Shown one piece after another: positions 39,523-41,760 of a DNA stretch of 64,000 nt (position 1 is its first letter; every line of letters begins with the position of its first letter). Under the pieces are notes generated by a model, which worked only from the letters and a program-made list of their open reading frames with translations, had not been told where the DNA came from and searched no databases. A program made the translations under genes and the position numbers. The DNA is from Clostridia bacterium (GTDB lineage Bacteria > Bacillota > Clostridia > RGIG7378): assembly GCA_017559445.1 (NCBI GenBank), contig JAFYSJ010000026.1, positions 1,908 to 65,907 of the forward strand, in the 5' to 3' direction.

Positions 39523-39730
39523 TAGTGTTTAGTGTTTGGTGTTGAGTGTTTAGTGAATGTCCCTTTGTTCCTATGGTCTTTTATATATGAACTTACTTCA
39601 TTCGTTAAACACTAATCACTAATAACTAAACACTGCAAACAAAGTTTGTGAACCGTGCCTCCCGCGCTTCGGAAGTAGCGGGCGACTTTTGATTACTTTT
39701 GGTCGTTCAAAAGTAATGAATAAACACTAA
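39523..39730 (+). repeat. ~210-bp structured repeat element, copy 1
   Basis: Heptamer (TAGTGTT)-bounded element with nested hairpins; aligns along its length with the reverse complement of 41542-41760. Confidence 0.9.
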
Positions 39731-39744
39731 TACGGAGGATTTAT

Positions 39745-40728
39745 ATGTCTTTACATATCATCAGACACGACATCACAAAAATGAAGATAGATGCCATTGT
39801 AAATGCGGCCAATTCCTCTTTGTTAGGTGGCGGTGGAGTAGATGGCGCCATTCATCACGCAGCAGGTCCTGGACTTCTCAAGGAGTGCATGACCTTAGGT
39901 GGTTGTGACACAGGTGACGCCAAGATTACAGGCGCATATAACTTGCCATGTAAGTACGTTATCCATACAGTTGGACCCGTTTGGCATGGCGGACAGTATG
40001 GCGAAAAGGAGCTTCTTAGATCCTGTTACATCAAATCCTTGGAGCTAGCCAAGGCAAATGGATGCGAATCTGTTGCATTTCCTTTGATTTCTTCTGGTGT
40101 GTACGGATACCCCAAGGACCAGGCACTTAGAGTTGCCATGGACGCAATATCAGACTTTTTGCTTACATGGGACATGACAGTTTACATGGTCATTTTTGAC
40201 AAGGCTGCAGTTACAATTAGTCAAAAGCTTTTCTCAGACATTAAGCAGTACATCGACCAGGCTTATGTTGAGGAGAGTGAGGTTAAGTATAGCCGCAACA
40301 GAATCCTTGCTGAAATGAGTACCAGTGCTCCAGTTCAGTACTGTAAGGCTATTAAACCTGAGAAATCTTTGGAAGACATAATTGGTGAAATAGACGAGAG
40401 CTTTTCTCAGATGCTCCTTCGTAAGATTGACGAGCTTGGCATGACAGATGCGGAGTGCTACAAAAAGGCTAACATTGACCGTAAGTTGTTTTCTAAGATT
40501 CGCGGAGATGTGAACTACAAGCCAAGCAAGCCCACAGCAATTGCCTTTGCAGTGGCATTGCAGCTTAACTTAAAAGAGACAGAGGAGTTGCTCAAAAAGG
40601 CAGGGTTTGCCCTTTCTCGTAGCAACAAGTTTGACCTTATTATTCGATACTTTATTTCCAATGGAAATTACAATATCCATGAGATTAACGAGGCATTGTT
40701 TGCCTTTGACCAGAACTTGCTTGGATAA
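39745..40728 (+). CDS. Macrodomain (O-acetyl-ADP-ribose deacetylase/YmdB-like) fused to an XRE-like HTH region
   Basis: DIT...DAIVNAAN...[30 protein letters not shown]-terminal [18 protein letters not shown]. Confidence 0.88.
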
Positions 40729-40731
40729 AAT

Positions 40732-40748
40732 GTCGCATGCCATGCGAC
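40732..40748. promoter_or_regulatory. Operator-like palindrome upstream of the vWA gene
   Basis: GTCGCATG-C-CATGCGAC, with no T-run, just upstream of a possible -10 (TATGAG/TATTAT). Confidence 0.55.
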
Positions 40749-40819
40749 CACATACAATTCGAAATTCTTTATTATGAGATTGTAGCGAAGAACTGCAATC
40801 TTATTTTTTGGAGGAATTT

Positions 40820-41467
40820 ATGAATAATATTACAGAGTTGGTTTTTATTTTGGATAGGAGCGGTTCCATGTGTGGATTGGAGGCTGACACAATCGGTGGA
40901 TTCAATTCCATGGTCGAAAAGCAGAAGGCTTTGGAAGGAAAGTGTTATGTGTCCACAGTGCTTTTTGACGATAAGTCAGACGTGATTCACGATAGACTTG
41001 ATTTGCAACAGGTGCCAGCTTTGACAGACAAGGAGTATTTTGTTCGTGGATGCACAGCTCTTTTGGACGCGGTGGGCGGAGCAATTCACCACATTGGAAA
41101 CGTGCATAAGTATGCAAGGCCAGAGGATGTGCCAAGTAAGACTTTGTTTGTAATTACAACAGATGGAATGGAAAATGCCAGCAGAAAGTATAGCTTGGAG
41201 AAGGTCAAGAATATGATCACAAGACAGAAGGAAAAGTACAACTGGGAGTTCTTGTTCTTGGGCGCAAATATCGATGCAGTCGAGACAGCTCGTAGCTTTG
41301 GAATTTCTGAGGATAGGGCAGTAACATATTTGAGTGACAAGGAAGGCACAAGTCTTAACTTCAAGGTAATGGATAGCGCAATTCAGTGTTACCGCAAGAG
41401 CTCTGTTATTAACAAGGACTGGAAGGACGACATTGAGAAGGACGCTAAGAAGAGAAAGCGAAAGTAA
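40820..41467 (+). CDS. von Willebrand factor A domain protein
   Basis: LDRSGSM (DxSxS MIDAS), TALLDA, TDGMEN; ATG at 40820 after GGAGG. Confidence 0.88.
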   Translation: MNNITELVFILDRSGSMCGLEADTIGGFNSMVEKQKALEGKCYVSTVLFDDKSDVIHDRLDLQQVPALTDKEYFVRGCTALLDAVGGAIHHIGNVHKYARPEDVPSKTLFVITTDGMENASRKYSLEKVKNMITRQKEKYNWEFLFLGANIDAVETARSFGISEDRAVTYLSDKEGTSLNFKVMDSAIQCYRKSSVINKDWKDDIEKDAKKRKRK

Positions 41468-41541
41468 AGTGTTTCGTGCGTGAAATGTGCTGTTGCGCGT
41501 GATATACTTATAATAGAAGGTTGAATTTGTTAACGCAGTGA

Positions 41542-41760
41542 TTAGTGTATATTCATTACTTTGGAGCGACCCAAAGTAATCAAAGGTCGCCCGCTACTTC
41601 CGAATGCGCGGGAGGCACAGTTCGCAAAGCACAGCTTTGCAGTGGTTAGTGTTTAACGGATGAAGTAAGTTCCTATATAAAAGACCATAGGAACATAGGG
41701 ACATTCACTAAACACTGAACACCCAACACCCAACACTCAACACTCAACACCAAACACTAA
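41542..41760 (-). repeat. ~210-bp structured repeat element, copy 2 (inverted)
   Basis: Reverse complement of 39523-39730 with compensatory stem changes and a longer AACAC(T/C)N heptamer run. Confidence 0.9.

Follow-up and report, generated by a model that had tools for sequence, protein, structure and literature searches.

Within a 64,000-nt stretch of DNA from a Clostridia bacterium (contig JAFYSJ010000026.1 of assembly GCA_017559445.1, positions 1,908 to 65,907; the whole stretch is called the window here), two elements of about 210 bp face each other in inverted orientation. A macro-domain gene and a small gene for a von Willebrand factor A (vWA)-like protein lie between them. The locus raises the question of what these elements are and whether they act as a pair. 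[quoted passage not shown]

The genome that holds the window (G000; 1.68 Mb in 40 contigs, 42% G+C, 96.4% complete) was compared with three congeners, G001, G002 and G003. These four are all the sampled genomes of the order. The window contig is C34 of G000.

The two elements match each other and fold strongly

The left copy occupies 39523-39731 on the + strand and the right copy 41541-41760 on the - strand. They align as three sets of inverted arms: 39524-39620 with 41641-41737 (97 nt, 92% complementary), 39668-39731 with 41541-41604 (64 nt, 92% complementary) and 39645-39667 with 41606-41628 (23 nt, 91% complementary). In the whole-genome search, the right copy matched the left at 84% identity over 208/213 bases (query bases 2-209). 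The inverted pair that a preliminary description had proposed from the letters was therefore found, and so were the stem changes it had listed. A pair in the last hairpin reads T-A in the left copy and G-C in the right, and the small hairpin differs in both arms between the copies with its pairing kept. A CCCGC/GCGGG stem is found in both copies, as is a GTTCC...GGAAC stem, imperfect in the left one. The number of TAGTGTT/AACACTA heptamers differs between them.

Each copy consists of a module A, a long foldback, and a module B, made of three hairpins: hp0, which is small and variable, h1, the core hairpin, and hp2, of 10 bp. A covariance model of the two-hairpin core of module B, R1, was built from the copies in the genus. 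The parts of the two copies are as follows:

39523-39634, + strand: left copy, module A, long foldback (inverted repeats I3, I9 and I11; fold)
39523-39555: left A, run of TAGTGTT-type heptamers
39556-39605: left A, core of ~50 nt with the GTTCC/GAAC stem
39606-39634: left A, run of AACACTA-type heptamers
39635-39731, + strand: left copy, module B (alignments A2 and A3; pair counts)
39635-39649: left B, small hairpin hp0
39655-39686: left B, core hairpin h1, with a CCUCC stretch within it
39692-39717: left B, hairpin hp2
39718-39731: left B, terminal heptamer
41541-41640, - strand: right copy, module B, reversed (arms and sequence; R1)
41556-41581: right B, hp2
41587-41619: right B, h1
41624-41640: right B, hp0
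41641-41761, - strand: right copy, module A, reversed (arms, sequence and fold)
41641-41657: right A, short heptamer run
41658-41705: right A, core
41706-41761: right A, long heptamer run

R1 scored 97 bits on the left copy (G000:C34:41558-41626, in contig positions) and 91.9 bits on the right copy (G000:C34:43460-43529). Both copies are predicted to fold well. The element strand of the left copy reached -68.6 kcal/mol (z -7.1), with 0/200 shuffles as good, and its complement -52.0 kcal/mol (z -3.5). The right copy reached -71.7 kcal/mol (z -3.4), with 1/200 shuffles as good. Neither copy contains an open reading frame (ORF) of 50 aa or more, and at ~210 bp the copies are small, non-coding and multi-copy, as MITEs are. 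Public contigs from two studies retain both copies. In one public run an additional AGTGATT heptamer follows 41536, a difference of one heptamer.

The pair belongs to a large dispersed family

The preliminary description had proposed a search for more copies, and this search placed the pair in a large dispersed family. Used as a query, the full element gave 65 matches in G000, most of them to parts of it, and R1 gave 28 matches in G000, 8 in G001, 15 in G002 and 16 in G003. The B core of the left copy is 100% identical to a copy on contig C20. Modules A and B are found jointly, singly and in shortened form across G000. No matching termini delimit the complete A+B unit, whose copies run into neighboring arrays; inverted heptamer runs and arms are present within module A. 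Each species has its own heptamer type.

Copies lie between genes, in both orientations, apart from one weak match inside a long reading frame on C39. For the following counts, the genes of G000 were called with our own simple ORF caller, which is crude. There were 27 B-core matches between genes: 7 in the same sense as co-directional neighbors, 10 antisense to them, 7 flanked by convergent genes and 3 by divergent ones. No orientation rule for module B in G000 was found. The 23 gaps that carry module B have a median length of 378 nt, compared to a genome median of 90, and the repeats in them come within a median of 24 and 17 nt of the flanking genes.

The elements adjoin arrays of tiny hairpins, or mini-hairpins, on a constant TAGTG-type linker. 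Gaps with at least four linker motifs make up 118/1039 of the gaps and 53.4 of the 173 kb of intergenic DNA. The first TAG of an array serves as the stop codon of 21 G000 genes, including the short-chain dehydrogenase/reductase (SDR) gene before the left copy. Heptamer arrays within 80 nt of a start codon were sense in 15 cases and antisense in 1, and linkers after stop codons showed an orientation bias of 88 to 28. This bias near starts and stops is largely given by the foldback architecture, whichever way a copy is oriented.

These arrays bring up the possibility of a role for the host at the DNA level, in which the copies would be sites for nucleoid or replication proteins or hairpins used in replication or repair, with the heptamers as phased protein-binding arrays. 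The mini-hairpins are close to perfect palindromes (337/416 are perfect), their few internal mismatches have no strand asymmetry (5 A-C and 3 G-T), and such a role would also fit the share of intergenic DNA filled and the heptamer type kept by each species. A strand test on the mini-hairpins was uninformative because the hairpins are too perfect. We consider a DNA-level role improbable. Copy positions differ between species, no candidate binding protein is known apart from the PF05635 association described below, and nothing ties the copies to replication landmarks, for which no search was aimed on this fragmented assembly.

Two of the copies precede duplicated genes. At C12:17871-23448 there are two tandem paralogs of a BspA-type leucine-rich repeat (LRR) surface protein (814 and 909 aa), and the same mosaic stands before both, made of a mini-hairpin array, a reversed module B and a module A. 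G002 has a single LRR gene at this site. Some copies were therefore multiplied together with a gene duplication.

Both copies are additions relative to a congener, and no evidence was found that the pair acts as a unit

The left element is flanked on the outside by an array and an SDR gene, and the right element by an isochorismatase-family gene. The other features of the locus are:

39422-39522, + strand: array of four mini-hairpins with TAGTG-type linkers (sequence; direct repeat D4)
39745-40728, + strand: macro-domain protein gene, 327 aa (Pfam PF01661, E 2.6e-47)
40808-41467, + strand: gene for a small vWA-like protein of 219 aa (Pfam VWA_CoxE matched weakly, at 20.9 bits, under the cut-off)

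The fabG-like SDR gene has its TAG stop codon where the array begins, and the array runs into the left element. Module B of the left copy ends 3 nt ahead of the GGAGG of the macro-domain gene, and module A of the right copy ends 2 nt ahead of that of the isochorismatase-family gene. The repeat itself does not include the macro and vWA genes that sit between the copies.

G002 carries the SDR, macro, vWA, isochorismatase-family and oligoendopeptidase-like genes in identical order at 72-78% identity. Its two corresponding gaps are 20 and 88 nt long and free of elements, compared to 320 and 309 nt in G000, so that the macro ortholog, like the vWA ortholog, is present there without flanking elements. 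Because G002 keeps the gene order without either copy, both window copies are lineage-specific additions relative to G002. A third copy, at C12:34.8k, is absent from G001 and G003, where a terminator-like hairpin stands instead.

The gene block itself varies. The macro-vWA-isochorismatase block (window 39745-42283) is found at this locus in G000 and G002 (G002:C82). In G001 it is missing here and the gap is 137 nt (G001:C90). G003 has ~790 nt of pure repeats at the locus (G003:C73), and its macro and vWA homologs are on other contigs, near contig ends.

The preliminary description had suggested that the pair could invert or mobilize the ~1.8 kb between the copies. Two inverted copies that enclose 1.8 kb, and a gene block that is missing in G001 and located elsewhere in G003, would be accounted for if the macro and vWA genes were flipped as an invertible segment or moved as part of a composite transposon. 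A gene cassette enclosed by inverted composite repeats of a like kind also exists in G003. However, the genes keep their order and orientation in G002, where both elements are absent; no recombinase lies within or next to the segment (Pfam finds Macro, a weak vWA, isochorismatase and SDR there); and the two copies are only ~84% identical. Since only the macro and vWA genes lie between the copies, and G002 keeps the order without them, inversion or mobilization of this segment was not supported. In four public DNA runs, represented by contigs only, none of the contigs bridges either element; they break at the repeats. The joints seen in public contigs have sides of 22-33 nt, which probably fit other copies of the family. 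We found no evidence for an invertible or composite unit, which we regard as highly improbable; the inverted arrangement around the macro and vWA genes looks incidental.

Module A shares its arms with a cassette around a PF05635 gene

A single PF05635 gene was found in G000, at C24:12782-13150. The gene ends within a 13-unit array in reverse-linker orientation, with its stop codon in the first linker, and the gap upstream of the gene starts with a forward array. G002 also has one PF05635 gene, which lies between inverted heptamer runs of that species' type. Two of the three PF05635 genes in G003 have a left flank that aligns to the reverse complement of the right flank (141/208 identical at locus L257 and 67/84 at L259). 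Heptamer runs lie within both alignments. At L257 the alignment also includes a mini-hairpin and an inner arm, and in the G003 cassette the heptamer runs and arms form composite inverted repeats of ~200 nt around the gene. The inner arm of L257 matches module A of G000 in 32/42 positions for the C12 copy and in 61/96 positions, heptamers counted, for the left copy of the window.

In total, 4/6 PF05635 genes of the genus lie between inverted arrays of the host's own repeat type. While the window copies carry no ORF, a PF05635 ORF stands within inverted repeats in G000 (C24), in G002 and in two of three cases in G003. Because its arms match the inverted repeats around a G003 PF05635 gene, module A looks like a gene-less derivative of the PF05635 cassette. 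PF05635 resembles Avd, the accessory protein of diversity-generating retroelements (DGRs; PMC10053308). The element is not a DGR, since no reverse transcriptase (PF00078) was found, with 0 matches in G000.

The two remaining genes, at L258 (G001:C107) and L260 (G003:C39), belong to a second subfamily and have different hairpin-plus-linker arrays upstream. This suggests that each PF05635 gene subfamily goes with its own repeat type. Upstream of the G000 gene, C24:11940-12600 contains two copies of a ~110-nt segment, each ending in a strong terminator-like hairpin and a T-run; these could be a tandem leader or a riboswitch-like element.

Module B occurs beyond the genus

Module B is more widely distributed. 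Within the sampled genomes of the class the signal is nearly confined to the genus: R1 gave one other weak match only in 150 genomes, and the h1 pattern was found in 0/397 other genomes. Human-gut and viral copies were collected by a 25-base pattern from h1, which occurred in 23 viral contigs of IMG/VR and in at least 116 contigs from metagenomes, many of the latter labeled human gut. Each contig has one copy. The human-gut design is ~200 nt long; it has a long hairpin and a short G-rich spacer that is conserved, followed by hp0, h1 and hp2. Conservation among the gut copies ends directly after hp2, in 24 different flank contexts. Their hp0-plus-linker is the same unit as the mini-hairpin-plus-linker of G000, and the long hairpin upstream has A- and T-runs like a bidirectional terminator.

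The family has no counterpart in Rfam as far as searched. The 64-kb window gave 0 matches at the gathering threshold, and at E up to 10 the region 39300-41900 gave chance-level matches only. Ten human-gut loci gave tRNAs only. Nothing relevant was found in five loci of a metagenome-assembled genome (MAG) labeled Acinetobacter. Among plasmids and phages, BLAST results were limited to a heptamer match on a Vibrio plasmid and a single B-like copy on an unverified phage scaffold.

Several other observations were made among these sequences. In several phage-like viral or metagenome contigs (L104, L110, L112, L118 and L129), the gut version of module B stands directly after a major-capsid-like gene and precedes head-tail connector-like genes. 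The same left flank and element occur with three different right flanks, which could reflect recombination at the element or assembly joins. The MAG labeled Acinetobacter sp. (L045, L046, L051, L054 and L058; 50-55% G+C) carries a different repeat of ~330 nt with its own terminal inverted repeats. About 35 nt of it, spacer plus hp2, are common with the end of module B, and R1 scores 38 bits on it through this common part alone. A weaker case that shares the end of module B and has another first hairpin is G020:C32:146-200.

Evidence that weighs against a passively carried repeat

Several findings count against the repeat interpretation, and the first of them concern mobility. When filled and empty sites were compared at three loci, no target-site duplication or clean boundary was resolved; the insertion boundaries could not be placed because the orthologous flanks are only ~77% identical. 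G000 had 0 matches to Y1/RAYT, IS4/5 and IS110 transposases (PF01797, PF01609 and PF01548), although a gene could be missed in a genome that is 96.4% complete and in 40 contigs. The cassette with matching arms, in G003, carries a PF05635 gene and not the transposase expected of a MITE parent. To our knowledge, PF05635 has no catalytic activity and may be cargo. Two of the six PF05635 genes of the genus (one in G001, one in G003) are without heptamer flanks and have another hairpin array upstream, and tblastn found no PF05635 homolog in the flanks of the human-gut copies. Finally, four B matches in G000 overlap called frames, three of 70-95 aa and one of 591 aa on C39 that lies around a weak match.

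The enzyme search itself worked in a control, in which PF01797 was found in 6/14 reference genomes. TnpB (PF07282) scored under the cut-off, no relevant multi-copy protein genes were found in G000 as a sign of insertion sequences (IS), and the ends of the single IS3 copy are unrelated to the element. This IS3-family element (orfA and an rve orfB) is at C38:1-1250. A decayed partial copy is at C28:113140-113720, and its end is 8 nt from an hp2-like hairpin.

The other findings concern constraint on module B. In the left copy, the predicted fold of the element strand is better than that of the complement by 16.6 kcal/mol. Among 29 distinct genus copies, 97.6% of the pair cells are standard pairs and 4/20 B pairs change on both sides. 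Among these are a C-G pair of h1 that is G-C in 10 rows, and an A-U pair at the base of hp2 that is G-C in 10 rows, with G-U as an intermediate in 5. Where one side alone has changed, the result is mostly G-U rather than A-C. The covariation score was reached by 0/500 shuffles, a test that overstates the covariation, since the copies tested are related. Slid controls pair at 32-53%. In the genus and human-gut sequences together (39 sequences), perfectly paired stems come in at least 8 versions for hp0 and at least 6 for hp2. In 14/22 gut contexts, an opposite-strand frame of at least 100 codons ends within ~30 nt of hp2, a soft figure because high G+C inflates such frames. Covariation, strand asymmetry, G-U bias and gene-end placement suggest constraint beyond selfish spread.

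One explanation for this constraint is that module B, or the ~200-nt unit, is a functional structured RNA that was duplicated many times in the genus. It could be a stabilizer associated with the 3' untranslated region or terminator, an attenuator, or a small RNA that uses CCUCC against ribosome-binding sites. The paired changes, the better fold of one strand, the constant relative orientation to the gene end 0-30 nt past hp2 in those 14 gut contexts, and the resemblance of the gut upstream hairpin to a bidirectional terminator are all in line with this. Yet in G000 module B stands in either orientation to transcription, with the same and antisense orientations in the numbers given above, and the orientation in the gut copies would put the complement of the better-folding strand into the neighbor's mRNA. 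The orthologous gaps of congeners are without the element, shortened and mosaic copies are abundant, and the window, the Acinetobacter-labeled loci and the ten gut loci had no Rfam match to it. The paired changes are also open to another explanation: template switching within DNA palindromes can yield them, and the covariation of module B thus leaves RNA and DNA explanations unsettled. We rate a functional RNA, the main alternative to the repeat interpretation, as rather unlikely. The preliminary description had inferred selection for folding. For module B this has support, since its stems covary in the genus and in human-gut relatives, which is no proof of an RNA function.

Comparison with known repeats

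The description of the element as a non-autonomous MITE-like repeat fits in kind: it occurs in many copies between genes and in either orientation, is modular, and differs among congeners in its presence at orthologous sites. The closest parallels in design were sought among described bacterial repeats. BOX elements of Streptococcus pneumoniae are composite boxA-boxB(n)-boxC repeats (PMC3049150). By that description, they and the present repeat are both modular, with a variable number of modules that occur alone or together; both are under ~200-600 bp, intergenic and strongly paired if transcribed; and both occur in a species and its close relatives without a proven mobilizing enzyme. BOX differs in having defined inverted termini and target duplications (PMC3049150), of which none were found here for the A+B unit. 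The heptamer arms, the mini-hairpin arrays and the PF05635 link are found here only, with no BOX counterpart in this comparison of designs. Another S. pneumoniae repeat, SPRITE, is described in the same text as one hairpin of ~18 bp followed by a U-rich tract (PMC3049150). Terminator-like hairpins at gene ends are common to both, but the present repeat has four hairpins and no U-tract past the last one.

Repetitive extragenic palindromic (REP) sequences, BIMEs and REPINs (inverted REP doublets) share with this repeat short palindromes, intergenic mosaics and a high copy number; in all of them the hairpin structure is what is conserved, often just after genes (see also PMC3116915 and PMC3337134). 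The present unit is larger than a REP, with four different hairpins, a three-hairpin core and heptamer arms. A REPIN consists of two inverted REP palindromes in one hairpin and goes with REP-associated tyrosine (RAYT; Y1) transposases, whereas here the mini-hairpins form direct arrays with constant linkers and PF01797, the RAYT family, had no match in G000. Because RAYT was not found, the REPIN-like label of the preliminary description was dropped.

The PF05635 cassettes have a parallel in the intervening sequences (IVSs) of 23S rRNA with an S23p/PF05635 ORF, in which a small four-helix-bundle gene lies within long inverted repeats that form a stem if transcribed. In both cases a PF05635 gene is enclosed by long inverted repeats, and gene-less versions occur beside gene-bearing ones. 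IVSs lie in rRNA, whereas the copies here lie between protein-coding genes and have arms of heptamers and hairpin modules.

Heptamer repeats are also known elsewhere. Cyanobacterial short tandemly repeated repetitive (STRR) sequences are intergenic direct repeats of heptamers. TAACTGA heptamer repeats have been described between genes of Beggiatoaceae, Cyanobacteria and Bacteroidetes (MacGregor 2015, PMC4679880). They resemble the runs here in being tandem 7-base units that are intergenic, often a few bases before a start codon, and variable in length. The heptamers here have another unit sequence, form inverted pairs as foldback arms and are tied to hairpin modules, and these foldback arms explain by themselves the orientation of the heptamers near starts.

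A possible origin of the repeat

The following origin would be consistent with a composite interspersed repeat. Module A may be a gene-less, MITE-like derivative of the small PF05635 cassette, and module B an older and more widespread unit carried along by the same repeat system, with its hp0-plus-linker as the building block of the G000 mini-hairpin arrays. Spread and remodeling would take place at the DNA level through a trans-acting activity, together with slippage of heptamers. Further remodeling could come from hairpin-plus-linker units being duplicated in tandem and from copies that recombine with one another or undergo gene conversion. Repeats would survive only hard against gene ends. 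The left copy fills a gap that is a 20-nt intercistronic space in G002, and the right copy lies in the leader of the isochorismatase-family gene. Both copies would then be co-transcribed with their neighbors, and their strong folds may attenuate, process or stabilize the mRNA.

A more specific proposal is that the PF05635 gene within its heptamer-and-hairpin inverted repeats is the autonomous form of an undescribed mobile element without a recognizable transposase. Module A of the window would be its gene-less derivative and module B a single-strand recognition or end structure, and the element would target gene boundaries, with array growth templated by hairpins. We put this forward tentatively, as a possibility that is less probable than its opposite.

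Other features of the locus

A promoter-like consensus match was found at 41480-41508, upstream of the right element. The gap between the macro and vWA genes (40732-40808) contains a 12-pair hairpin at 40774-40804, followed by a T-run that overlaps the ribosome-binding site of the vWA gene, and a second terminator-like hairpin on the minus strand at 40748-40732. In this gap Rfam gave chance-level matches only (Ref1C and rli40).

Significance

The accessible literature, including a 2024 review of MITEs, held no description of this family or of its link to PF05635; supplements and most subscription journals were outside its scope. A few model bacteria have well-described small interspersed repeats, but for uncultured gut Clostridia hardly any description exists. 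In this case, a single repeat system accounts for nearly a third of the intergenic DNA in a genome of 1.7 Mb. Because the repeats reach stop codons, ribosome-binding sites and the interiors of operons, they probably affect transcript structure genome-wide. Since module B covaries, is outside Rfam and occurs on many human-gut and viral contigs, it is a concrete candidate for studies of RNA motifs and of mobile DNA. The link between the heptamer-armed repeat and the PF05635 cassette in this genus offers a testable origin for bacterial repeats for which no mobilizing factor has been found.

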